Assembly: GCA_947588755.1 (NCBI GenBank)
Contig: CANPZB010000002.1
Span: 7,954 to 71,953 of the forward strand
DNA: 64,000 nucleotides
Direction of reading: 5' to 3'
From: Candidatus Gastranaerophilales bacterium
GTDB lineage: Bacteria > Cyanobacteriota > Vampirovibrionia > Gastranaerophilales > Gastranaerophilaceae
Below the pieces are notes generated by a model, which was not told the DNA's origin, made no database searches, and saw only the letters and a list, made by a program, of their open reading frames with translations. Of this stretch, positions 12,349 to 63,136 are shown piece by piece; within the stretch, counting starts at the first letter, position 1, and every line of letters begins with the position of its first letter. A program made the translations under genes and the position numbers.

Positions 12349-12756
12349 TTAAATTTTTTTCAGTTTAGCAATTTGTTTATCCACTTCATTTTTTAGTTTT
12401 TCAGCTTTTTTACAAACACGCGATAAAAATTTTATCGGAGATTCAAAATATCTGACCTGATTATAGCTTTTAAATAATGGTTTCGGAATAAATGATAAAT
12501 TTTTGCGTATATGACCTCCGACATCTACTGACGGATGTGCAACCGCATGAAGTAATTCCTTGCTTATTTCAGATGATACGTAAACATCAACGGATTTATT
12601 TCGGTTAAATCTTTCAACAATTTTTGACAAATCATATATCATTTCCTGTGATAAAGATTCTTTCAATATACGTGATGCATTTTCGCTTATATGAATAGCA
12701 CCGAATGCAGGGTTTGTTTGATGGTTATTAAAATTACCGTTAAAATTTACGTTCAT
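12349..12756 (-). CDS. hypothetical small protein, distant paralogue of the duplicated 131-aa genes
   Basis: 135 aa. Shares with the two downstream genes the N-terminal N-rich stretch, the P.FG(A)IH motif (NPAFGAIHISEN vs KPQFGMAIHLGDN), the KSVDVYV/KVDIRLF block and the SP(I/V)KF(L/I) + lysine-rich helix tail. Confidence 0.6.
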   Translation of the reverse strand: MNVNFNGNFNNHQTNPAFGAIHISENASRILKESLSQEMIYDLSKIVERFNRNKSVDVYVSSEISKELLHAVAHPSVDVGGHIRKNLSFIPKPLFKSYNQVRYFESPIKFLSRVCKKAEKLKNEVDKQIAKLKKI

Positions 12757-12780: not shown

Positions 12781-13176
12781 TTAAAAATTCATCTTATTTA
12801 AAATTTCTTCTTTTTTTATAATTCTGGCTTCTTCTTTATCTGCAACCTTTGCCAATTTTTTAATAAATTTAACGGGGCTGCTATTAAATAACCAGCTGAA
12901 GATATTTTCCGAATAGTATTTATGAAAATCATTGAGGGCGTCCGGTGTTCGCAAATAGACATTAGCACTCAGTAGTTCACCCGTTTCTTTGTCAGCAAAA
13001 AGCCTTATGTCAACTTTAGAGTTTTTTTCTTGCTTTTTAAAAATGTCGTTTATTATTTCAACATCCTTTAAAGATTTTATTCTGGATTTGAGTACACGTT
13101 TAACATTATTATCGCCTAAGTGTATTGCCATACCGAATTGCGGTTTTGGGCAGTTGCAATTCAAGTTTGTCTGCAT
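12781..13176 (-). CDS. hypothetical small protein (tandem copy 1)
   Basis: 131-aa ORF, identical to 13209..13604 except one residue (R vs G, nt 12825 T vs 13253 C). Confidence 0.65.
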   Translation of the reverse strand: MQTNLNCNCPKPQFGMAIHLGDNNVKRVLKSRIKSLKDVEIINDIFKKQEKNSKVDIRLFADKETGELLSANVYLRTPDALNDFHKYYSENIFSWLFNSSPVKFIKKLAKVADKEEARIIKKEEILNKMNF

Positions 13177-13208
13177 ATTATTTTCCCTTTCTTTTTTATT
13201 TTTATTTG

Positions 13209-13604
13209 TTAAAAATTCATCTTATTTAAAATTTCTTCTTTTTTTATAATTCCGGCTTCTTCTTTATCTGCAACCTTTGCCAATTTTTTAATAAATTTAA
13301 CGGGGCTGCTATTAAATAACCAGCTGAAGATATTTTCCGAATAGTATTTATGAAAATCATTGAGGGCGTCCGGTGTTCGCAAATAGACATTAGCACTCAG
13401 TAGTTCACCCGTTTCTTTGTCAGCAAAAAGCCTTATGTCAACTTTAGAGTTTTTTTCTTGCTTTTTAAAAATGTCGTTTATTATTTCAACATCCTTTAAA
13501 GATTTTATTCTGGATTTGAGTACACGTTTAACATTATTATCGCCTAAGTGTATTGCCATACCGAATTGCGGTTTTGGGCAGTTGCAATTCAAGTTTGTCT
13601 GCAT
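13209..13604 (-). CDS. hypothetical small protein (tandem copy 2)
   Basis: 131-aa ORF. See copy 1. Confidence 0.65.
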   Translation of the reverse strand: MQTNLNCNCPKPQFGMAIHLGDNNVKRVLKSRIKSLKDVEIINDIFKKQEKNSKVDIRLFADKETGELLSANVYLRTPDALNDFHKYYSENIFSWLFNSSPVKFIKKLAKVADKEEAGIIKKEEILNKMNF

Positions 13605-13713
13605 ATTATTTTCCCTTTCTTTTTTTTTTTATTTCTAAAACCCGTAAAAATATTTTTTGCTACTTTGTGTAACAAAATTTTACATGTCTTGATTTTTAAG
13701 GCATAATAAAGTC

Positions 13714-18883: not shown

Positions 18884-19087
18884 TGCTTAATATTTGTTAA
18901 TAATATAGCAAAAATTTTTATTCAGGATATTTTTAATCTGACAGGATAAATTTGAAGTTTCGGATTTATTAAGTATTATGAAAAAGTAGTTACTGATAAT
19001 AGAAATAAAGTTTTCCTCTTGGTAAAATATATGTGCGAAATATATAATAGTTTAATATGTAAATATAAATTGAAAGGGTGCAAAAGC

Positions 19088-21826
19088 ATGATTAAATCAG
19101 TTAAAAAGGGACAGAAGTTAAGTGCCGCAATATTAACGGTTTTACTTATAATGCAGCAATCTTTTTGTGTGCAGGTAATGGCCTCCCAAATATCAGGAGT
19201 TCAAGGAACACAAAACCCTAACGGGCCGGGACAAATATTTGATATTGAACCTACTGCCAAAAACGGTGATATAGGATTTAGAAAATACAAAAATTTTGAT
19301 TTAAGCGAACAAGATATTGCTAACCTTATTTTCAAATACGGTCAGGATAATGTGGAAAAATTCGTTAACCTTGTTTCTAATCAGGTTAATATTCAAGGTA
19401 TTTTGAATACAATGCGTGACGGCAATTTTTATAACGGTCATGCGGTATTTATTTCACCAAACGGTGTTGTTGTAGGTGCAAGCGGTGTTTTAAACGTAGG
19501 CTCTCTTTCCGTTTTAACTCCGACACAAGAAAGCTTTGATAAACTTAAAGGTGATATAGATAATCAACCTAACCTTATTCAAAATTACGAATCCGCACTT
19601 GTTCCCGGTAACGGTGCCGTAAAAATTGAAGGTAAAGTTATTGCACGTGATTTGGTTGATATAAAAGCTGCTGATGTTAATGTTACACCTAACGGAACAG
19701 TTTTTTCCGGTGTTAATGATGTTACTGCCCTGAATTCACGTAATCAAGCCGAACTTTTATTTAATAATCTTGTTAACACAAGTAATATGACAGACGGAAA
19801 TACTTTTGAAAGCGATAAGGGCAGTATTTCAATAAAATCTTACGGTGCTGACGGCGGTTCAAAAATCGAAGGCGAACTTAAAAACTTCGGTAAAGGTGAT
19901 ATTAAAATTTCAAACAGTGGAAGCAAAGGTGTTGATGTAACAAAAAATATTTCCAATAAAAACGGAAGAACGGTAATTGAAAATACGGGTAACGGAGGAA
20001 TTAAAATCAGCGGAATTATTAATTCAAAAGGTATTGATATTAATAACTCCTCATCTGACGTTTTGATAGGTGATAATTCCGATAAAAATAATTATTTAAC
20101 ATCTTCTGCCGATGTAAATATCAATATACAAAACGGAAACCTTTTAAATAATTCGGGTTCCGTAAAAACGCTTATTAAAACTACCGATAACGGTAATTTG
20201 AATATCAGCGTTCAAAACGGTAAAATCGGTGAAGAAGTCGGGCCTTGTGACGGCGGTATTTGTACGGGTATTGGCGACGGCGAAAGAGATTTAACAAAAT
20301 CCGTTAATACTTCAATCGACGGTAAAATAAATGCAAAAAGTACCGGCTCAAATTCAGTTATTAATATGGCAAGTCTTGATAAGGATATGCACATTGACAA
20401 AATAGAATCCGACGGCAGAGTTATTCTTCTTGCCGATACTGCCGATTTATCCCAAAAGGGAACCGTGGCTTATGATGTTTTAAATTATTCGTCTGATAAT
20501 ACTCAGCCAAATGTCAAAGGTAAAGGAATTTCAATTATTTCAAGCGGCAATATCGGAAGTGTGGACAAAAAATTAACTTTTGTCCAAACTGCGGGAGATT
20601 TTAATGATACTGCATGGAATGCCGATAAAACAAATTATACGCCTGATGCACAATACGGTGTTGAAATGCTTGCAATAAAAGATATTAATGTTAAAGGTCT
20701 TGATAATGCGGACGGTACGAAAAGTGACACTAATGTATGTGCTATGATTTCAAAAGAAGGCAGTATTAATGCTGAATTTTCAGGTGATACATATATCAGA
20801 GAAATAAATGCGGATAAAAATATTAATTTGACAACTCTCGGTAATAAAATGTATATCGAAAATCTCGGTACTACACCTACGTATTCTCAAGATTACTACG
20901 GGCCTAACGGAAATGTATCTCCCGACAGAGTTAAAATTTCCGCACTGGATTTAGGAACTTCATGGCCTGATAATCCTGCTGATTCAACCGTTGTAATCAA
21001 AAACGGCAGTATAGGCGGTGACGGTAATCTTCGCCCGAGTGCAGATCAGGATTTGACTGTGGCGGCAGACAATGTTTATGTTGACGGTAAACATTTCCAC
21101 ATGGGTAATGACAGAAACGGCGGGCCTTCGTTTGTCGAAGATGATGCTTCAACAAATCGTTTAACAAATCCTTCTCAAGATAAGGAAGTTTCTATAAGAG
21201 TAAAAGCGGTAAGACCGAATGATGTTGAAGCTGCGGGACATAACCGTAACGAACGTAATTACTATTACGGCGGAAGTTCACAAGGCGGTAATTCCGACTA
21301 TGATGTCGACGGTAATCCTTTGCCTGATGAACAAAAAGGCGGTGAAAATGATGATGATAACATTGTAGTTCCGTCAACAGGTTCTGTACCGACGGCAAAT
21401 AATGATAATACAATGTCATCCGACGATGTATACCGCGATTTGTGGAAACAAAGATTAGCTGAGGACAATGTTGATTCTATTGATAAACGTCAATACATGA
21501 GATTTAGCGTTGAAAACAACAGACATCCCGTTTCGCTTGCTCAAAACGCTCAAATCGACAGTTTGATAGATATTTCCAGAGGCGGTGTAGCAGTACATCA
21601 TAACCATACTTTAAAAGTAGGTGATGTTGTCCCCGTTAAAATTAACTACGGAAATCTGGCAATTAATACAGATGTTAAAGTAGTTACGGCGTCTGACAGG
21701 AGAGCCGGTGCGGAATTTATAAATCTTGACCAAGCGACCGCTAACAAACTTCTGTATATGAATGTTATGTTGGAAGAAGCTGAAACGGCTATGTTGAACA
21801 AACAAAACCTGTCTTATAATAAATAA
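19088..21826 (+). CDS. secreted TPS (haemagglutination-activity) domain protein with C-terminal PilZ domain
   Basis: Signal peptide MIKSVKKGQKLSAAILTVLLIMQQSFCVQVMA. TPS-like block FRKYKNFDL..NLVSNQVNIQGILN..AVFISPNGVVVGASGVLNVGSLSVLT. G/N/D-rich passenger. C-terminal RQYMR..(22 aa)..DISRGG plus a beta-barrel pattern. ATG 19088 preferred over the track TTG 19019. Confidence 0.75.
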   Translation: MIKSVKKGQKLSAAILTVLLIMQQSFCVQVMASQISGVQGTQNPNGPGQIFDIEPTAKNGDIGFRKYKNFDLSEQDIANLIFKYGQDNVEKFVNLVSNQVNIQGILNTMRDGNFYNGHAVFISPNGVVVGASGVLNVGSLSVLTPTQESFDKLKGDIDNQPNLIQNYESALVPGNGAVKIEGKVIARDLVDIKAADVNVTPNGTVFSGVNDVTALNSRNQAELLFNNLVNTSNMTDGNTFESDKGSISIKSYGADGGSKIEGELKNFGKGDIKISNSGSKGVDVTKNISNKNGRTVIENTGNGGIKISGIINSKGIDINNSSSDVLIGDNSDKNNYLTSSADVNINIQNGNLLNNSGSVKTLIKTTDNGNLNISVQNGKIGEEVGPCDGGICTGIGDGERDLTKSVNTSIDGKINAKSTGSNSVINMASLDKDMHIDKIESDGRVILLADTADLSQKGTVAYDVLNYSSDNTQPNVKGKGISIISSGNIGSVDKKLTFVQTAGDFNDTAWNADKTNYTPDAQYGVEMLAIKDINVKGLDNADGTKSDTNVCAMISKEGSINAEFSGDTYIREINADKNINLTTLGNKMYIENLGTTPTYSQDYYGPNGNVSPDRVKISALDLGTSWPDNPADSTVVIKNGSIGGDGNLRPSADQDLTVAADNVYVDGKHFHMGNDRNGGPSFVEDDASTNRLTNPSQDKEVSIRVKAVRPNDVEAAGHNRNERNYYYGGSSQGGNSDYDVDGNPLPDEQKGGENDDDNIVVPSTGSVPTANNDNTMSSDDVYRDLWKQRLAEDNVDSIDKRQYMRFSVENNRHPVSLAQNAQIDSLIDISRGGVAVHHNHTLKVGDVVPVKINYGNLAINTDVKVVTASDRRAGAEFINLDQATANKLLYMNVMLEEAETAMLNKQNLSYNK

Positions 21827-29656: not shown

Positions 29657-30370
29657 ATGCGGAATTTTATCATAATATTAAGTTTAATTTTTTTATTGCC
29701 TGCTTACGGCGGGGATTATAATTTATATAAAAGCGGTGATTATTCAGCGGGAAATATTTCGGAAGAAGAACGAATATTGTTTATACTGGATTTTTCCAAC
29801 AGTATGACGGAATACCTAGACGGTGAGAGAAAAATAGACTTAATGCTGTCGACGATAAAGTCAATATTACCTAAACTCGGTAAAAACACTTATGCGGGTT
29901 TAAGGGTTTACGGTCATAGAATGGGATTTACACCATACGATGCGTGTCATGCATCAACGCTTATTTCACCAGTAATTTCGGATAACACGGCAAATATATT
30001 AAATTCATTATCGGGAATAAAGCCGAGAGGGATGACCCCGATAACATATTCACTAAAGCAGGCGGTCAAATATGATTTTATGGGATTTACGGGGAAAAAG
30101 CATATAATACTTTTAACAGACGGCGGAGAAAACTGTGATGAGAGTCCGTGTAAATATGTAATGGAACTTGTCAAACTGAGAAAAGATGTAAAAATTGATG
30201 TAATAGCATTTAACATAAATGATGAAGAAGATTTGGAGCAATTGGAATGCACATCGCTTGTGACCAGCGGAAAATTTTATACAGCGAATACAGCGGCAGA
30301 GTTGGCGAACAGCCTTAATAACAGTATCAATTCGGTAAAAGATGTAGAAGCCAAAATCATTTCACATTGA
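29657..30370 (+). CDS. secreted von Willebrand factor A (VWA) domain protein
   Basis: Signal peptide MRNFIIILSLIFLLPAYG. MIDAS-like DFSNSM (DxSxS). HIILLTDGGENCDESPC. Confidence 0.8.
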   Translation: MRNFIIILSLIFLLPAYGGDYNLYKSGDYSAGNISEEERILFILDFSNSMTEYLDGERKIDLMLSTIKSILPKLGKNTYAGLRVYGHRMGFTPYDACHASTLISPVISDNTANILNSLSGIKPRGMTPITYSLKQAVKYDFMGFTGKKHIILLTDGGENCDESPCKYVMELVKLRKDVKIDVIAFNINDEEDLEQLECTSLVTSGKFYTANTAAELANSLNNSINSVKDVEAKIISH

Positions 30371-30929
30371 ATTAAGAAACAGCATTTGTCATGCTGAATT
30401 TATTTCAGTATCTTAGAATTTTCGTGGCTAATGTTGATTTAAGACACTGAAACTAGGCAACGGGGGTAAGATCCTGAAACGAGTTCAGGATGACATGGTA
30501 GGGTTCACCATGACATGGTTGGTGTTCAGGATGACATGATGGTGGAAGTTGTTTGTCATAGACGAACAAAATGCCGCGAAAATTCTGTCATGTCTTTCCA
30601 TGTCTTCCCCCGCCATGTCATGCTGAATTTATTTCAGCATCTTAGCCTTATCAAGTCTTACATGGCTTAAAACCTGCCCGTATCAATGCTGTATGTAATA
30701 GACACTGAAACTATGCGACGGGGATAAGATCCTGAAACGAGTTCAGGATGACATGGTGGGGTTCAGCATGACATGTGTGTAGTGCATTATTTGTCATAAA
30801 ATGACCAATGCCACGGGGGTAAGATCCTGAAACAAGTTCAGGATGACATGGTAGGGTTCACCATGACATGGTTGGTGTTCAGCATGACATGTGAAAATTC
30901 AGCATTACATGGGGTGGGGATAGTATTTG
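30371..30929. repeat. dense cluster of hairpin elements and 20/21-bp phased motif repeats (REP/MITE-like)
   Basis: Five copies of the about 30-nt hairpin unit ATGTCAT[G/C]CTGAA-N4-6-TTCAG[C/G]ATCTTA. Two are forward (30387-30416, 30615-30645) and three reverse (30467-30498, 30725-30756, 30820-30851). Nine GTTCA(G/C)(G/C)ATGACATG motifs. Confidence 0.9.
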
Positions 30930-31667
30930 TTATTTCATGTTGTCAGGATATTCCCAGTTGTTTGAGTATATGGCATCAAAACAATTACAACCATTAAGAG
31001 TACTTGATTTACACTCATTGCTACCAGAACTCCCATATCCAGTAATATCTCCATTTGTTTTTATTTGAAGTCCAAATAAATCTCTGCCTGCCACATTTGG
31101 TTTTTTTGAACCGTTAATGTCAACAACAACATCTATTCTACCTTCTTGCTTTGAGGGCCAAACAGAATAACCGGCTGCTGTCATAAATGAATTATCACCA
31201 GCTGACACTGAAGTCGTTCCACCATTTAATGTTGTATAACTGCTTGCAAAACATGGGGCTGACTGTCCCGAACAAGTATGAGCGACTTTAAAGTATTTTG
31301 GGAATGCGTTAGCAGGGTCAGTAGCTAATGTTGTAGATAAAATACTCTTTTTACCTTCGGTTGTCAACGCCAAATCGGCAACTTGTCCCAAATCAAAGTA
31401 TACTTTTCTTATCATTGCGATATTTGCCTTGTTTTTATAATTGGTAATCAAAGAAGGCATGGTAATTGCCGATACTACCCCGATTATCCCGAGGGTGATA
31501 AGTACTTCAGCCAGAGTGAACGCGACTCTACGTTTGTTGTGTTGCCGGGCTACGTGCGTAGCACCTTCAGCCAGAGTGAACGCGACTTTACGTTTGTTGT
31601 GTTGACGAGCTAAAGCACCAAAAAAATTTGGTTTACTCTTTAATAAATTTAAGTTTTTGTTTTGCAT
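30930..31667 (-). CDS. type IV pilin-like / pseudopilin protein with duplicated prepilin leader
   Basis: ..ARQHNKRKVAFTLAEGATHVARQHNKRRVAFTLAEVLITLGIIGVVSAI.. Conserved VVDINGSKKPNVAGRDLF block. Cys-containing C-terminus ending NNWEYPDNMK. AAAGGAA RBS. Confidence 0.8.
   Translation of the reverse strand: MQNKNLNLLKSKPNFFGALARQHNKRKVAFTLAEGATHVARQHNKRRVAFTLAEVLITLGIIGVVSAITMPSLITNYKNKANIAMIRKVYFDLGQVADLALTTEGKKSILSTTLATDPANAFPKYFKVAHTCSGQSAPCFASSYTTLNGGTTSVSAGDNSFMTAAGYSVWPSKQEGRIDVVVDINGSKKPNVAGRDLFGLQIKTNGDITGYGSSGSNECKSSTLNGCNCFDAIYSNNWEYPDNMK
31505..31619. repeat. in-frame direct duplication of the pilin leader/cleavage-site coding block (60-nt + 54-nt units)
   Basis: CTTCAGCCAGAGTGAACGCGACT(C/T)TACGTTTGTTGTGTTG occurs at 31505 and 31565. 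The units encode GA(THV/L)ARQHNKR(R/K)VAFTLAE twice. Confidence 0.9.
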
Positions 31668-31697
31668 AATATAGTTCCTTTTATTAAAATTACATTA

Positions 31698-32336
31698 CTA
31701 ATAATTCATTTCCCAGTTGTCGTTTAGGATTTTACCGAAGCAAGCCTCCGGATTAGTTTGACTTGCTTGAAAGTTAGCTTCTCTCTGTGCATTAGGTGTT
31801 GTATCGCTTGACTGTGAGCCGTTTCTGATTCTGTAGTCTATGGTATCAATACTACCGTCAGGCCAGTATGGTAACCGAAAGATATCCTGACAACTTTTGT
31901 TTGGGCCTTTAGTTCCGTTAATATCAACCACGAACAATTTAACTGTAGTTCCCATCCAAACTGCCGCTCCGCTTTCCAACATAACAGCATTCGGACCAAA
32001 GCCGGGGAATGCCTGATTTTGTGTAAAACAACCAACGTAACCTAAGTTACAAACTTTGGAAACTTTAAGGTACCTGTTCAAAAAAGCAGCTGCACTGTCT
32101 ATATCGCTAAATACAAACTCACTTTTGTGATTTTCCGTCATATACAAGCTCATTGCCTGTGTCAGGTCGTTATATACCTTTTTCAAGGAAGTTACATACA
32201 GATTTTTTCTGTAATTTGCTATGACATTGGGCAACACAAGCGAAGATACTACTCCGACAATAGCCAAAGCTATCATGGTTTCTGCCAGAGTGAATGCTAA
32301 AAGTCTTTTTATACGATATTTTTTCTCTCTTTTCAT
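31698..32336 (-). CDS. type IV pilin-like / pseudopilin protein
   Basis: MKREKKYRIKRLLAFTLAETMIALAIVGVVSSLVLPN prepilin-type N-terminus. VVDINGTKGPNKSCQDIF block. C-terminal ..CFGKILNDNWEMNY. Confidence 0.8.
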   Translation of the reverse strand: MKREKKYRIKRLLAFTLAETMIALAIVGVVSSLVLPNVIANYRKNLYVTSLKKVYNDLTQAMSLYMTENHKSEFVFSDIDSAAAFLNRYLKVSKVCNLGYVGCFTQNQAFPGFGPNAVMLESGAAVWMGTTVKLFVVDINGTKGPNKSCQDIFRLPYWPDGSIDTIDYRIRNGSQSSDTTPNAQREANFQASQTNPEACFGKILNDNWEMNY

Positions 32337-32406
32337 ACCGCCTCCGAGTTATATTATATTCTTTTGCGGTATGCTTGTCAATAATGAAAATATTGTTTGG
32401 TTTTAA

Positions 32407-32579
32407 TGGGGGGGTGGCATGTGAGAGTTCAGGATGACATGGTGGGGTAAATATTCGCGGCTGAAATTGATTTAAGACACTGAAACTATGCGACGGGGGT
32501 AAGATCCTGAAACGAGTTCAGGATGACATGGTAGGGGTTCAGGATGACATGTGAGAGTTCAGCATGACATGGTGGGGTT
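32407..32579. repeat. second cluster of the same hairpin/motif repeat family, upstream of the pilin pair
   Basis: Reverse hairpin unit at 32500-32531. GTTCAG(G/C)ATGACATG motifs at 32427, 32516, 32537 and 32557. The about 100-bp block 32469-32575 is near-identical to 30436-30540. Confidence 0.9.
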
Positions 32580-32802
32580 ATACTTCTATAAACAAACGTC
32601 TGCCGACTATGTTCTGTTTGCCGTTGTAATACCCCGCAAAATAGCCGCCGCGAACAGGTGTGTTTTTTGCATAATTCGCGTAACTTCCGCTATAATTGAC
32701 AAACGGATTATTACTGTAAGGATTTGCACTCTTGACAGGCTGTGTTACCTGTGCCGGTGTCGGTAAAAATACTTGTGATAATAAATTTACTATACTTGCC
32801 AT
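32578..32802 (-). CDS. small hypothetical protein rich in N/Y/G/P
   Basis: 74-aa ORF with a GAGGT RBS 9 nt upstream. Mildly hydrophobic N-terminus. Its stop abuts the repeat cluster. Confidence 0.4.
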   Translation of the reverse strand: MASIVNLLSQVFLPTPAQVTQPVKSANPYSNNPFVNYSGSYANYAKNTPVRGGYFAGYYNGKQNIVGRRLFIEV

Positions 32803-55250: not shown

Positions 55251-55327
55251 GGCGTCTGTCGTCAAGCGGTTAAGACCTCGGATTGTGGTTCCGATATGCG
55301 TGGGTTCGAATCCCACCAGACGCCCCA
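55251..55327 (+). tRNA. tRNA-His (anticodon GTG) with encoded G-1 and 3' CCA
   Basis: Hand-folded cloverleaf. Acceptor stem GCGTCTG/CAGACGC, extra 5' G pairing with discriminator C, anticodon stem TCGGA/TCCGA with loop TTGTGGT, T-arm GTGGG-TTCGAAT-CCCAC, terminal CCA. Confidence 0.9.
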
Positions 55328-55329
55328 TT

Positions 55330-55494
55330 TTTAACTTTTTTCCAATATTTTAGCTTATAAAATATCGGAAACAGTTCTATTTTAAGGGTTTCGCCATTAT
55401 AAGACAGGGTTCGGATGCAAGTTTGAATAATCTCTCTTTTTACTTGCGGCTCTGCTAATCTGAACAGTTCGGGTAATTGGTTACAAAATGCCAT
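55330..55494 (-). pseudogene. short ORF fragment reading into the tRNA 3' end, possible remnant of a mobile-element gene
   Basis: Track ORF 55270..55494 has an in-frame stop just upstream of its ATG and runs antisense into the tRNA. The segment LAEPQVKREIIQTCIRTLSYNGETLKIELF vaguely recalls recombinase C-terminal tails. Not verifiable here. Confidence 0.25.
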
Positions 55495-55575
55495 TATTAA
55501 ACTTAAATAGTAAGTTGGAGTTTTTCACCACAATGATAGATTGTTTCACCCATCTTACTTTCTTGAAATTATGCG

Positions 55576-56640
55576 TTAAACCAGCCCTTTTTCAAGAATA
55601 TTATCTATAGAATAACAATGTTGACTTAGCCAATTTTCAACCATTTTTACCATTTGATATGTATTTACACTATCAGCGTATTGAGGGAGTTCTTGTATTA
55701 ATTTCCGAACCTCATCATTAGGTGTTCCCGCTTTTATTTCACTATAATTTTTCATTAATAATAATGTATTTTTGGAGAACTTCTTATAGAAAGCAGCATC
55801 ACATAATTCCATATAAATCTTTATTTTTTCTTCATCTGAAATCCCCATTTTATCCAAATGAGAAATGATATTCTTTAATGGTTTTCCACAAGCATCAGCA
55901 AGAACAATATCATTTTGCCCTAAAGCATGCAGAATTTTTTTCTGAATAGCATATGCAGATTCTTCCAAGGGCTCAGTCGCATATAAATGGGCATTCCTTA
56001 TGCAATTATAATCGTATTGACTTTTAACGGTAAAAAATTTAGTATTATTCCAAGCATCCAAGAATCTTTCAACATTAAAGTTTTCTACATTTGAATCTTG
56101 ACTCATTTTTTCCCAGAAATTCTTATCAACATTAGCACCTGGATATCTTTTTTTCAAGGCGGAAACATAACTGTCATGTCCAACTGATTTATAAATTTTA
56201 GCTGCTTTATCAAAATGATCTAATTCATGTCTTATCAAAGCTATTTTTTGTTCTTTTGTAATGATATTAGGCAGTTTACCTACTGTCAAAGTGCCATCAG
56301 CAAGATCAAATGCACACATACAAACAATATTATTATCCTGAAAAGGCTTTACCTTTATCAATTCCGGTTTTGAATACCCCATTGTTCGTAACATTTCATC
56401 TTTAACCGTCGAACAAAAAGTTATATCATTTTTATCATCAATTTTCATTAGTTTTTCCAAGAACTTGTGGCACAAAGTTCTATCCGACTTAAATGTGCAA
56501 ATATCAGTCTTTAAGGGAGTATATTTTAACCCGATTGTATTTATTTTTACGGGTTTTGTCGCAAGCAAACTTTTCCCGCTTGTTCTAGTCCAAGCAATAA
56601 TTTCTTTTCCCAGTTGTAATCCTGCTTTTTCTATTCCCAT
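55576..56640 (-). CDS. hypothetical protein with HExxH zinc-metallopeptidase-like motif
   Basis: 354-aa ORF. LIRHELDHFDK (HExxH) and a possible third ligand in TEPLEESAY about 75 aa downstream. No signal peptide. Confidence 0.55.
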   Translation of the reverse strand: MGIEKAGLQLGKEIIAWTRTSGKSLLATKPVKINTIGLKYTPLKTDICTFKSDRTLCHKFLEKLMKIDDKNDITFCSTVKDEMLRTMGYSKPELIKVKPFQDNNIVCMCAFDLADGTLTVGKLPNIITKEQKIALIRHELDHFDKAAKIYKSVGHDSYVSALKKRYPGANVDKNFWEKMSQDSNVENFNVERFLDAWNNTKFFTVKSQYDYNCIRNAHLYATEPLEESAYAIQKKILHALGQNDIVLADACGKPLKNIISHLDKMGISDEEKIKIYMELCDAAFYKKFSKNTLLLMKNYSEIKAGTPNDEVRKLIQELPQYADSVNTYQMVKMVENWLSQHCYSIDNILEKGLV

Positions 56641-57022
56641 ACAAATATCCTTAATTTCCCCTATATATGAAAAGTATTTTTCTCATCAAAAATTGCCTGA
56701 TTATTACAAAAGTTTAAATGGGAATTTTTATTACTATGCTAAAAATAGTTAAACCTTCTGATTTACGTAATCAAGTTAAATGTTTACACAAAAATTACTT
56801 TATTGATTTTAAAACTGTAAGTTGTGGTTTTCTTTACAGTTACTTTAATATTTTGTCAAGCGTAAAAAAAAGCGGTTTCGCATTTGTGGCTTTGCCACAG
56901 TATGTTCAATCTGCTCGCTATCCGGACTCGTTACCACTCCGTCCGTCCGCAAATCCGTAAGTTCAGCATGACATTATCTTTGATTTCATAATTTATACCT
57001 CCTGAGATTAATTATAACTTAA

Positions 57023-57041
57023 AATGGATTTAAAATCCATT
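57023..57041. promoter_or_regulatory. perfect 9+1+9 palindrome, operator candidate for the adjacent XRE regulator
   Basis: AATGGATTT-A-AAATCCATT lies immediately upstream of the HTH gene start. Confidence 0.45.
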
Positions 57042-57042
57042 A

Positions 57043-57285
57043 TTGTTAAAAAATGTATATCATAATTGTGTTGTGAATGAGTCAGTTGTTGAAATATTTA
57101 TAAAAAATCTTAAAAAATTACGGCTTCGTCATGGATGTTCCTGCAAACAATTATCCGAGCTTATCGGTTGTGATTCATCTTATATAAGTAAAGTAGAAAA
57201 CGGCAGAATATTACCTTCAATTGATAAAATTATATCTCTGGCAAACTATTTTCAAATTAAGTTTATAGATTTCTTTAAAGAATAG
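57043..57285 (+). CDS. XRE-family helix-turn-helix transcriptional regulator
   Basis: LKKLRLRHGCSCKQLSELIGCDSSYISKVENGR HTH. The start is uncertain (TTG 57043 or GTG 57073, no clear RBS). Confidence 0.65.
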   Translation: MLKNVYHNCVVNESVVEIFIKNLKKLRLRHGCSCKQLSELIGCDSSYISKVENGRILPSIDKIISLANYFQIKFIDFFKE

Positions 57286-57354
57286 TTTTTTTTTCTTGTT
57301 TGAAAAATAAGTAAGTTTGCAGGTCGGATTTACTAATTTGCCAAAACTATATTA

Positions 57355-61325: not shown

Positions 61326-62111
61326 TTGGAAGAGATAGAAATAAATACCGAAGAACTTGATAATCTGCTTGTCTCATATAAAAATTGTGCTGACGGGAAA
61401 AAAAAACGTGTCTTGCATTTGAATATTGTTGAAAAATCAATGTTTTTGGTTAAAAAAATTGCAATGACACTTGCCTTCCAATTTGGTATGTCTACGGAAG
61501 ATTTAATACAGGTAGGTTCAATAGGTTTGATAAAAGCTATTGAGATGTATGATTGTCAAAAAAATACCAGATTTAAGACCTATGCGTCATATTTTATCCG
61601 CGGTGAAATAAGACATTATATAAGAGATAAAGGCCCTATTATTAAAGCTCCGAGAGAACACAGGGACATGTTTTTACGCGTTAGTGCCGCTATAAAAGCA
61701 CTTAAAGAGCAAGGATTTGATGAGCCGAGTGAAGAACAAATCGCTAATGAAGCGGGATTACCTCTTGAAAAAATAAATGAAGTTTTGGAAATTGAACATT
61801 GTAGAATGATTCTTTCTCTCGATCAGGCATGTTTCACTGACGATGACGAATATTCTTTGCTCGATAAAATTCCCTCGGGTGATTATCGGGAAGTTTTAAA
61901 TTCTTATGAAGATAAAATTATGATAGTATCTGCTATTAATAAGCTGCCACCTAAATTAAAGCAGATAATAGAGATGAGTTTTTTTGAAGACCTGAATCAG
62001 CGGGAAATTTCAGAAAGAATACATATTTCTCAAATGCAGGTTTCAAGACGTATAAAAAAAGCATTAAGTAAAATGTACGAAATAATTAAATCAAGTGAAA
62101 GCAGTTCATAA
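61326..62111 (+). CDS. sigma-70 family RNA polymerase sigma factor, group 3 (SigF/SigB-like)
   Basis: Region 2 (DLIQVGSIGLIKAIEMYD.., YASYFIRGEIRHYIRD) and region 4 HTH (REISERIHISQMQVSRRIKKAL). No region 1.1. TTG start. Confidence 0.85.
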   Translation: MEEIEINTEELDNLLVSYKNCADGKKKRVLHLNIVEKSMFLVKKIAMTLAFQFGMSTEDLIQVGSIGLIKAIEMYDCQKNTRFKTYASYFIRGEIRHYIRDKGPIIKAPREHRDMFLRVSAAIKALKEQGFDEPSEEQIANEAGLPLEKINEVLEIEHCRMILSLDQACFTDDDEYSLLDKIPSGDYREVLNSYEDKIMIVSAINKLPPKLKQIIEMSFFEDLNQREISERIHISQMQVSRRIKKALSKMYEIIKSSESSS

Positions 62112-62125
62112 AAGGAGAGACATAT

Positions 62126-63136
62126 ATGACATTATTATTAACGGTTATTGCGTTTGTATTTATTGTAGGACTTTGTATAGGAAGTTTTTTGAATGTTGTG
62201 ATATTAAGAAGTTTGGAAGGTGAATCGATTGTTTCCCCGCCTTCAAAATGTCCGTCTTGCGGGCATGCTTTAAAATGGTATCACAATATACCTCTATTTT
62301 CGTATATATTTCTCAGAGGTAAATGTGCTTTTTGTAAGGAACACATTAGTCTGCAATATCCTATAATTGAACTTTTGACGGGAATTCTTTTCTGCCTGAT
62401 ATTTATTGCGGGAGGAATTTCTGTAAATACTCTTGTAATGATGATTGTGGTAAGCTTGCTTATTGTCATTGCGGGTACGGATTTAAAAGGAAAAGTTGTG
62501 TTTGATGTTCATACACTTTCCCTTGTGGGGGTATGTCTTATATATTCCGTATACGCTACCGCAAATATACTTTATTTAGCTCATGTCAGACCCGAATATA
62601 TTACTTTGAATAAAGATACAATAATTTTTCTGCCTGTAGTTTCTTCCATATTAGGTTGTCTTGCGGGTATTGTTATTATGGAAATTCTTGCCAGATTTGG
62701 AAGTATTGTTAAAAAAGGTACAAGAATGTTTGAAGTCGGTGATACTTATATCGCCGCAGGTCTGGGAGCATTGTTCGGCTGGCAAATGATTGTACCCGTT
62801 ATTTTATTGTCAATTGTTGTTCAGGTTGTACTTTTCCTTCCGATATTTATAAGGGATTTATTTTTGAGAAAAGAAACCAAAACCCTTGTTGCACTTTTGT
62901 CTTTTATTGCTTACGCGATAATATTTTTTGCTTTGGAACAAACTGGTATAATTACGGTCGATAAGCTTATTGTGTATATACCTGCCGTTTTGGTTCTTGC
63001 ATTGCTCGGTATTTATTCTTGCGTAAGGATAATTACAAATTTAAAAGAAAATCCGTCCTCAGGTACATGCATGCCTTTCGGGCCTGCTATGGTTGCTGCG
63101 GCATTTTTGACTTTTATTTTAACAGCATTTATTTAA
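62126..63136 (+). CDS. pilD: prepilin peptidase (A24 family, PilD-like)
   Basis: N-terminal zinc motif CPSCGHAL..CAFCKEHI with WYHNIPLFSY. Multi-TM body with AGTDLK and VGDTYIAAGLGALFGW aspartate blocks. Confidence 0.8.
   Translation: MTLLLTVIAFVFIVGLCIGSFLNVVILRSLEGESIVSPPSKCPSCGHALKWYHNIPLFSYIFLRGKCAFCKEHISLQYPIIELLTGILFCLIFIAGGISVNTLVMMIVVSLLIVIAGTDLKGKVVFDVHTLSLVGVCLIYSVYATANILYLAHVRPEYITLNKDTIIFLPVVSSILGCLAGIVIMEILARFGSIVKKGTRMFEVGDTYIAAGLGALFGWQMIVPVILLSIVVQVVLFLPIFIRDLFLRKETKTLVALLSFIAYAIIFFALEQTGIITVDKLIVYIPAVLVLALLGIYSCVRIITNLKENPSSGTCMPFGPAMVAAAFLTFILTAFI

Follow-up and report, generated by a model that had tools for sequence, protein, structure and literature searches.

In a 64,000-nt stretch of the genome of a Candidatus Gastranaerophilales bacterium (contig CANPZB010000002.1; the whole stretch is called the window below), two pilin-like genes on the minus strand are bracketed by short tagged hairpins that resemble repetitive extragenic palindromic (REP) elements. 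One cluster of these hairpins (30387-30910) fills the space in which a vWA-domain gene and the pilin operon converge. The second (32428-32570) lies upstream of the operon promoter, which sits at 32381-32353 (-). The features of the locus, and one outlying copy, are as follows.

30387-30416 (+): full TGTC-tagged REP hairpin, ATGCTGAA/TTTAT loop/TTCAGTAT; left partner of heterodimer 1, 17 nt past the vWA stop codon
30436-30469 (-): conserved spacer block (..AAGACACTGAAACTAGGCAACGGGGGTA), repeat family D2
30467-30498 (-): full REP hairpin, ATCCTGAA/CTCGT/TTCAGGAT; right partner of heterodimer 1, 57-nt spacer
30504-30516 and 30525-30537 (-): two tag-side half-units (tag and 5' arm only), in a 20-21-nt tandem with the full hairpin
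30615-30645 (+): full REP hairpin, ATGCTGAA/TTTAT/TTCAGCAT; left partner of heterodimer 2
30697-30727 (-): second copy of the conserved spacer block, D2, 74%
30725-30756 (-): full REP hairpin, ATCCTGAA/CTCGT; right partner of heterodimer 2, 86-nt spacer
30762-30774 (-): tag-side half-unit
30820-30851 (-): full REP hairpin, ATCCTGAA/CTTGT, single
30857-30869, 30878-30890 and 30898-30910 (-): three tag-side half-units, the last about 20 nt short of the pilin-like gene 1 stop codon
30930-31667 (-): pilin-like gene 1, encoding 245 aa with an N-terminal methylation motif, whose region is duplicated in tandem over 60 bp (D6)
31698-32336 (-): pilin-like gene 2, encoding 212 aa with an N-terminal methylation motif; the pair's first gene
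32353-32381 (-): sigma-70-like promoter TTGACA-17-TATAAT, 12/12 match to consensus, directly upstream of pilin gene 2
32428-32440 (-): tag-side half-unit, about 47 nt upstream of the -35 hexamer
32469-32502 (-): third copy of the conserved spacer block, within the D2 copy 32450-32536, which is 92% identical to the reference copy 30417-30503
32500-32531 (-): full REP hairpin, ATCCTGAA/CTCGT, single
32538-32570 (-): two tag-side half-units in a 20-nt tandem
56962-56974 (-): orphan tag-side half-unit (TTCAGCATGACAT on the plus strand), adjoining a different shared repeat motif

Anatomy of the hairpin cluster

The window was scanned with the degenerate pattern GTCAYNCYGAA-N3-7-TTCRGNRTC, using 100 shuffles as a control. 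The pattern matched at 30388-30412(+), 30470-30494(-), 30617-30641(+), 30728-30752(-), 30823-30847(-) and 32503-32527(-), where none would be expected from the shuffles, and these are the six hairpin units that had been recognised in the original prediction. The layout of all six full hairpins is TGTC-AT[C/G]CTGAA-5 nt-TTCAG[G/C]AT-CTTA, and every one carries both the TGTC tag and a C directly 3' of the palindrome (6/6). Copies on the plus strand have arms ATGCTGAA/TTCAGCAT, except that copy 30388 has TTCAGTAT instead, giving the G-T wobble that had been noticed earlier; copies on the minus strand have arms ATCCTGAA/TTCAGGAT. They are arranged as two tags-outward heterodimers (30388/30470 and 30617/30728) and two singles. 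Folded as single-stranded DNA (ssDNA), the units form stems of 8 bp closed by loops of 5 nt (dG -6.1 to -6.8 kcal/mol, z -3.2 to -4.2), but at copy 30388 a rival hairpin at 30380-30396 beats the REP fold. This rival is terminator-like, CAGCAT-TTGTC-ATGCTG followed by AATTTATTTC, and shares sequence with the tag and 5' arm of that REP. Judging by its letters, the upstream CAGCAT, an alternative partner of that arm, may be the remnant of another 3' arm.

The earlier description of the cluster stands for the six full units but was incomplete, as nine tag-side half-units had gone unlisted. The 13-mer TTCAGSATGACAT occurs 15 times with at most one mismatch within 30386-30910 and 32428-32570, because nine half-units, each a tag with one arm, exist beyond the full hairpins; with at most two mismatches there are 20 matches window-wide against 2.9 expected. 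The half-units consist of the tag and 5' arm read on the minus strand, and form 20-nt tandem arrays beside full hairpins; Tandem Repeats Finder reported arrays at 30483-30538, 30836-30891 and 32516-32579. The longer block of about 100 bp in which the minus-strand copies had been said to be embedded corresponds to repeat family D2, 87 nt in length, with four copies (at 30417, 30675, 30770 and 32450) that are 67-92% identical. By eye, the spacer block at 30436-30469 opens with a degenerate tail-side REP half (about 13/17 matches to TAAGATCCTGAAACGAG). Since most local copies are half-units and duplicated blocks, the cluster appears to have grown largely by local duplication or slippage, and not by six independent insertions. 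Half-plus-full tandems, with a period of 19 nt, are also found in an alphaproteobacterial metagenome-assembled genome (MAG; L013), and given this recurrence they may be a footprint of the mechanism.

An isolated half-motif had also been predicted near the tRNA-His gene, and the orphan half-unit was found there. A second repeat motif shared between genomes, CGCTATCCGGACTCG..(C)CGTCCGT.., abuts it at 56915-56960. The same motif stands beside REPs in a Muribaculaceae MAG and a deer-gut bacterium (L012, L014), and probably represents another small repeat family.

The possibility that the repeats were an assembly artefact is countered by two independent ENA assemblies (L001 and L002), which agree base for base with the window (100% identity) over the covered part of the upstream cluster and pilin gene 2. 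Contigs from rabbit gut also span the repeats. In L001 (1020-1104 against window 31560-31640) the 100% identity extends over the upstream REP cluster and pilin gene 2 and continues 36 nt into pilin gene 1, past which the sequence changes abruptly to an unrelated open reading frame (ORF; MQNKNLNLLKNCVLIRNIIDRDGEHKK..) at a coverage of 1.7. Either the downstream gene has been replaced at the strain level, or the contig is a low-coverage chimera. Window DNA was detected in rabbit-gut metagenomes in DNA runs only, and none of the RNA runs searched for the locus contains it. In the source metagenome, repeat bins have a word depth of 40-490x against 3-4x for the unique flanks, a depth that is not assignable to this genome. 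Protein matches to the pilins were found only on contigs of 0.9-1.1 kb.

Two observations concern pilin-like gene 1 itself. At its 5' end, a 60-bp tandem duplication (31505-31612, 94% identical) doubles the ..KRKVAFTLAE.. prepilin cleavage/methylation motif, leaving two candidate processing sites at the annotated N-terminus; from the sequence, the true start may lie downstream of the annotated one. The 5' (N-terminal) part of the gene (31424-31651) is also covered in the rabbit-gut contigs at 3-5x the depth of the remainder, as would be expected if the community or genome contained many paralogous pilin N-termini.

Distribution and covariation across genomes

A scan of one genome per species with the pattern AAGATSCTGAA-N3-7-TTCAGSATGACAT found the unit, about 29 nt long, in at least 111 genome loci from more than 10 phyla. 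Far from being confined to the pilin locus, it was seen in Gastranaerophilales/Melainabacteria (about 29 loci), the FCB group (about 30, including cultured Tamlana, Gramella, Flagellimonas, Pedobacter and Gillisia), Patescibacteria (about 14), Proteobacteria (about 12), Treponema (7) and Elusimicrobia (3); these counts are approximate, being taken from record titles among the loci listed. Nitrospirota, Chloroflexota, Dependentiae, Caldiserica and TA06 were also among the matches listed. The flanks of the unit are unrelated between loci. Sibling hairpins in the same loci have stems CCCTGAA, TCCGAA, CCCGAA or GCCGAA, with tag, loop type and tail unchanged.

The scan pattern leaves complementarity between its two S positions unforced, and these are complementary in 115/116 copies. 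Among 105 distinct hairpins, 98% of cells pair, compared with 22-48% when the partner is slid, and changes on both sides were counted in 112 cells, where shuffles gave 33+-4 (0/500). Covariation extends to loop positions 1 and 4 (C-G 62, T-A 32); mini-loops of the CTTG/TTTA type are especially stable loops in DNA hairpins. The second stem pair is U-A in 93/105 hairpins and C-G in 11/105, and the G-T wobbles favour the TGTC-reading strand in eight cases versus two for the other strand. As different stems share one locus, the covariation points to intrastrand pairing and not to a single duplex-binding protein. Outside the window the base before GTC is T in 203 copies, C in 22 and another base in 7, and the 3' tail reads CTT(A), its second base being T in 221/232 copies, a figure to which the scan pattern itself contributes.

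Copies lie inside long ORFs in 15% of cases, against 84% for random positions. Within the 111 loci listed they are enriched in convergent intergenic regions and depleted in divergent ones, and their orientation relative to the upstream gene is unbiased (47 sense, 51 antisense). Neighbouring copies are arranged with tags outward (head-to-head, HH) in 54 cases, tags inward (TT) in 14 and in tandem (HT) in 15. The HH dimers are hetero in 54 cases and homo in 2, where 28% homo would be expected, and the commonest HH pair across genomes is ATCCTGAA + ATGCTGAA. The G/C difference that had been described as mirrored in both arms is thus real structural covariation, and the pair found in the window is the canonical heterodimer of the family. 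The proposal of a structured, REP-like family of miniature elements is likewise supported, the unit being a member of the cross-phylum CGTC/TGTC-tagged REP superfamily (Di Nocera, De Gregorio & Rocco 2013, PMC3733652).

In MAGs of Gastranaerophilaceae and Vampirovibrio, the loops or arms of some REPs are split by inserts of about 45-95 nt (L099, 6384-6500, 6586-6660 and 6740-6815; L097, 4209-4275 and 4430-4500). Some of the inserts are themselves repeated, and it seems therefore that other miniature elements land in the hairpins.

Association with GIY-YIG nuclease genes and interpretation of the cluster

When the 789 ORFs of the 111 REP loci were clustered, the only recurrent non-housekeeping family that looked relevant encoded GIY-YIG proteins (small clusters were not all annotated), and no recurrent transposase family was found. 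A GIY-YIG ORF of about 95 aa is present in 5/111 of these REP-ascertained loci, four times complete and once cut by a contig end (L024). The complete ORFs match PF01541 at E 1e-15 to 1e-17, are 49-62% identical, have REPs within about 80 nt on both sides and come from four groups (Roizmanbacteria, Gastranaerophilales, Balneolota-type Aliifodinibius and one unclassified). A Gastranaerophilales homologue lies at L096 6439-6726.

An independent test used 80 metagenome loci picked solely by their GIY-YIG homologue. A GTC-tagged hairpin lies within 200 nt of the gene in 67/80, and on both sides in 43 of the 73 evaluable loci, with tags pointing outward from the gene in 36/44. Near the gene there are 4.43 hairpins per kb, against 0.21/kb more than 500 nt away, a 21-fold local enrichment; shuffled sequence has 0.024/kb. 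Hairpins of the CTGAA type occur in 34 of the 80 loci and hairpins fitting the published pattern for Ssn-related motifs (SRM) in 24, including the NTS-like CGTCATTCCCGCGAAAGCGGGAATCC; only one locus has both. The nearest protein neighbour of a GIY-YIG homologue shares its hairpin class in 57/60 cases, and ATTCCCGC stems are present beside homologous GIY-YIG genes elsewhere. Flanking bases that were not forced by the search are also nearly constant, a C closing the tag in 86/88 hairpins and a C following the stem in 81/88. The cassettes have a polarity: the upstream hairpin is of the ATCCTGAA or ACCCTGAA type and the downstream one is ATGCTGAA/TTTAT, with 298-454 nt between them. In the window dimers this polarity is kept on the minus strand, with the partners only 57 and 86 nt apart.

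SsnA of Neisseria meningitidis is a 94-aa single-domain GIY-YIG nuclease whose ssDNA-only, strand-specific target is the NTS hairpin, which contains dRS3, and such hairpins typically stand on both sides of the ssn gene (Chenal et al. 2025, PMC11893778). Mutagenesis of SsnA showed that three nucleotides 5' of the palindrome govern cutting, which occurs a few nucleotides upstream of it, while the C just 3' governs binding (PMC11893778). The two unforced C positions correspond to these cleavage and binding determinants. Loops are dispensable, loop extensions are tolerated and stem halves can be supplied in trans, the enzyme does not bind RNA, and the system lowers transformation by NTS-flanked DNA about 5-fold (PMC11893778). 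From their size, their single domain, their 48-77% identity to homologues flanked by NTS-like hairpins and the cassette geometry, we infer that the GIY-YIG ORFs belong to cd10448/Ssn; searches of NCBIfam and PDB sequences with them gave nothing useful.

The cluster in the window is therefore most probably, at a probability of roughly 0.7, a mosaic of ssDNA hairpins that are targets of Ssn and belong to the CGTC-REP superfamily, including miniature dimers that lack ssn. The hairpins would then act as DNA, and not as protein-coding or regulatory duplex sequence. The strand 5'-TGTC-AT(C/G)CTGAA-loop-TTCAG(G/C)AT-CTT-3', once made single-stranded in replication, repair or incoming transforming DNA, would fold into the 8-bp hairpin and, by analogy with SsnA, be bound by a small single-domain GIY-YIG endonuclease of the Ssn family encoded in trans. 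The autonomous unit of the family would be REP-ssn-REP. The tags-outward heterodimers of the window look like its ssn-less miniature derivatives, because they share the cassette polarity at a spacing of only 57 and 86 nt. Local duplication or slippage of the block of about 90-100 bp and of the 20-nt half-unit tandems would have produced a mosaic like the neisserial intergenic mosaic elements (NIMEs) on both sides of the operon. The expected outcome would be strand-specific nicking, with recombination hot or cold spots bounding the exchange of the flanked pilin genes. A cognate Ssn in this genome, cleavage of the hairpins by it and any effect on the pilin locus are presumed from these comparisons.

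Several points weigh against this interpretation. An Ssn-like ORF was not found in the 64-kb window (best HMM E 0.59; tblastn), so that a cognate enzyme of this genome is putative, its sole support here being ssn-like contig fragments in the same rabbit-gut metagenome, with a depth similar to that of the window but not assignable to this genome. The published SRM query (HGTCWYN(0-2)YYVSBRHN(0-5)WNVSBRGN(0-2)RNCYNB), which matches the NTS control, matches nothing on either strand of the window (0/6 of its hairpins) and 0/227 CTGAA-type hairpins. SsnA recognition depends on sequence as well as structure (PMC11893778), and the Ssn enzymes assayed to date are for stems other than the CTGAA type. 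The half-units lack a 3' arm and the 3' C, and would not be bindable alone. Within the window the hairpin family amounts to one locus and one orphan. A BLAST search of the window dimer spacers against all fetched loci gave nothing significant, and thus no support for the spacers as remnants of ssn flanks. The link to pilins elsewhere is slight, a REP lying within 300 nt in only 3/4 pilin-like ORFs versus 30% of other ORFs.

An action at the RNA level, in which the hairpins stand in the 3' untranslated regions of the convergent vWA gene and pilin operon as stabilisers or terminators of mRNA 3' ends, would agree with the mostly downstream position of the family, its convergent enrichment and divergent depletion, as likewise reported for CGTC REPs (PMC3733652). 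Copy 30388, so close behind the vWA stop and overlapped by the terminator-like hairpin, and the three minus-strand copies after the pilin-1 stop would fit as well. However, the hairpins lack a T-run, their orientation is unbiased with respect to the upstream gene, one cluster lies upstream of the promoter and the locus appears in no RNA run. At the RNA level no role is known for the conserved unpaired tag and the 3' C, yet both correspond to determinants of SsnA, which does not bind RNA, and such a function is unlikely as the main explanation; it could exist alongside Ssn targeting, as a side effect. The hairpins might instead be targets for insertion or integration, where IS110-type elements or filamentous phages land as at dRS3, a known phage recombinase target in Neisseria. 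The nested inserts that split REPs in the related Gastranaerophilaceae/Vampirovibrio loci speak for this, but the window copies contain no inserted element or recombinase, and such landing is a consequence of the hairpins existing that leaves their conservation and spread unexplained. We consider it quite unlikely to account for the cluster.

A duplex-DNA operator array, with 20-nt phased half-sites binding a regulator of the pilin promoter, is suggested by the half-unit spacing of about two helical turns, by the half-unit about 47 nt upstream of the perfect sigma-70-like promoter, and by the response regulator and sigma factor encoded in the window. Identical units nevertheless occur downstream of the operon and beside unrelated genes in more than 10 phyla, and different stems covary within each hairpin at one locus, as intrastrand pairing but not one protein's half-site would require, so that an operator is very improbable. 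Mobilisation as classical REPs or REPINs by a REP-associated tyrosine transposase (RAYT; Y1/IS200-like) would give a similar look, with tagged hairpins in inverted doublets and clusters resembling bacterial interspersed mosaic elements (BIMEs). The tag, however, is TGTC and not GTAG, and the recurrent neighbour is a GIY-YIG gene, without a recurrent transposase family among the clustered ORFs. The absence of a RAYT or transposase from the window, already remarked upon, was confirmed by Pfam scans of all ORFs of at least 120 aa, in which transposases, Y1/HUH proteins and GIY-YIG proteins were all lacking. It is expected, because the partner enzyme of the superfamily is the GIY-YIG ssDNA nuclease Ssn and not a Y1 transposase (PMC11893778); the survey of CGTC REPs likewise detected none linked to them (PMC3733652). 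RAYT mobilisation is thus extremely unlikely. Least credible of all is a small RNA that sponges CsrA/RsmA through repeated CAGGAUG motifs. A weak Rfam rsmX match at 30466-30572 (+) hinted at it, but its 23.7 bits (E 0.1) are far under the gathering score (56), GCA or CCA replaces GGA in about half of the units, GGA lies within the stem in full hairpins, and covarying stems rather than GGA define the family.

Other leads were dropped. Rfam at the gathering threshold found only tRNA-His in the whole window, and at E<=10 on 30300-32700 only the weak rsmX match and noise. A protein-coding reading of the ORFs of 43-51 aa that span the repeats was rejected on account of copies in both orientations, unrelated flanks and covarying stems; the ORF clusters ..VTLNLFQGL.. 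and ..KILKRVQDD.. are translated REPs. A literature search by sequence strings returned chance primer matches only.

Building on the interpretation of the hairpins as Ssn targets, one may speculate that they form a recombination fence convergent with the NTS/NIME arrangement of Neisseria. A trans-acting Ssn would cut the ssDNA hairpins flanking the pilin-like operon and set the transformable segment. The half-units would serve as alternative 5' arms for a single 3' arm, as Ssn tolerates loop extensions and stem halves in trans, giving a ladder of phased cut sites, and the surface-exposed pilin cassette would be kept or diversified as a unit. The abrupt divergence of L001 at 36 nt into pilin gene 1 would fit such a fence, which we nonetheless regard as a long shot. 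A REP stands directly upstream of a pilin-like ORF in at least two other loci (L044, L095), although four pilin-like ORFs are too few to claim a general association, and this and the L001 breakpoint are only hints of a recombination effect.

The remainder of the window carries ordinary chromosomal genes, together with a 935-aa PilZ-domain protein, a sigma-70-family factor and the prepilin peptidase PilD (A24), located in 19019-21826 and 61326-63136. These proteins indicate that the organism has type IV pilus or pseudopilus machinery, to which the pilin-like genes between the REPs could contribute. Two near-identical 131-aa ORFs (12781-13176 and 13209-13604) arise from a 428-bp unit present twice in tandem at 12781-13634 (99% identity); they adjoin a third ORF of 135 aa (12349-12756), and none of the three has a Pfam match. 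The region 55252-57300 contains tRNA-His, a 354-aa ORF with a weak phage-metallopeptidase-like match and then AT-rich non-coding DNA, with a small ORF at about 57080-57285 that by eye has the look of an XRE-type helix-turn-helix protein. It may be the remnant of a small integrated islet, in which no integrase was seen.

Comparison with known repeat systems

CGTC REPs are defined by a CGTC tag (often TGTC, with CCTC allowed), an 8-9 bp stem opening with A-T and T-A, a loop of 4-5 nt and a short, unpaired tail of 3 nt that mostly fits CCA; they form HH dimers, which are heterodimers in the 5-nt-loop families, lie downstream of ORFs and include the Neisseria dRS3 as a member of CGTC-1 (PMC3733652). 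The window units share the unpaired TGTC tag, the 8-bp stem opening A-T/T-A and the 5-nt loop, and their family shares the predominance of HH heterodimers, the intergenic location mainly downstream of ORFs and the lack of an associated transposase. A short unpaired tail is present as well but differs, being CTT(A) here where the consensus is CCA. On stem and loop length only, the closest type appears to be CGTC-2, with an 8-bp stem and a 5-nt loop. The published survey listed five phyla and found clusters and tandem half-units to be rare (PMC3733652); beyond these phyla, the unit is also present in Melainabacteria/Gastranaerophilales, Patescibacteria, Elusimicrobia, Nitrospirota, Chloroflexota, Dependentiae and others.

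Similarity to the SRM/NTS system extends to a hairpin of defined orientation whose palindrome has GTC directly on its 5' side and C directly on its 3' side, to the REP-gene-REP cassette around a single-domain GIY-YIG gene of about 95 aa and to clustering around particular genes. It differs from the published SRM in the AT-richer ATSCTGAA stem and in the lack of an ssn gene in the window. This one highly conserved hairpin class spans Melainabacteria, Patescibacteria (CPR), the FCB group, Spirochaetes, Elusimicrobia and Proteobacteria and is tied to GIY-YIG genes as tightly as the published motifs. As it is invisible to the published pattern, counts based on that pattern understate the system. 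The dimers follow a strict rule of heterodimer and polarity that mirrors the REP-ssn-REP cassette, and any hairpin class, taken with its cognate nuclease, might supply a new specificity for cutting ssDNA at defined sites.

RS-type repeats were first described at Neisseria pilin loci. As with dRS3 and the NIMEs, the clustered tagged hairpins of the window are mixed with other short repeat blocks and flank genes of a surface or virulence type. Their stems are AT(C/G)CTGAA, unlike dRS3, which reads ATTCCC-N8-GGGAAT, has a 4-nt loop and belongs to another phylum, and unlike NIMEs, part of the mosaic consists of half-units of the hairpin itself. NTS clusters are reported around virulence genes in Neisseria (PMC11893778), and together with the SRM-like mosaics around pilin-like genes they suggest, as an idea that can be tested, that hairpins and their nuclease control exchange at surface-protein loci.

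With GTAG REPs, BIMEs and REPINs the family shares a tagged hairpin, inverted doublets, mosaic clusters and miniature non-autonomous doublets, and with RAYT systems a single-copy, trans-acting enzyme for ssDNA hairpins that is flanked by its own repeats. The tag is different, and the enzyme fold is HUH/Y1 there and GIY-YIG here. REPIN doublets fold as one long hairpin, whereas the present dimers are almost always hetero, so that pairing between units is disfavoured. The hairpin/nuclease system as such is already known; what is new here is the range of phyla and a stem class outside the published search pattern, and the tandem half-units and the bracketing of pilin genes are peculiarities of this locus.

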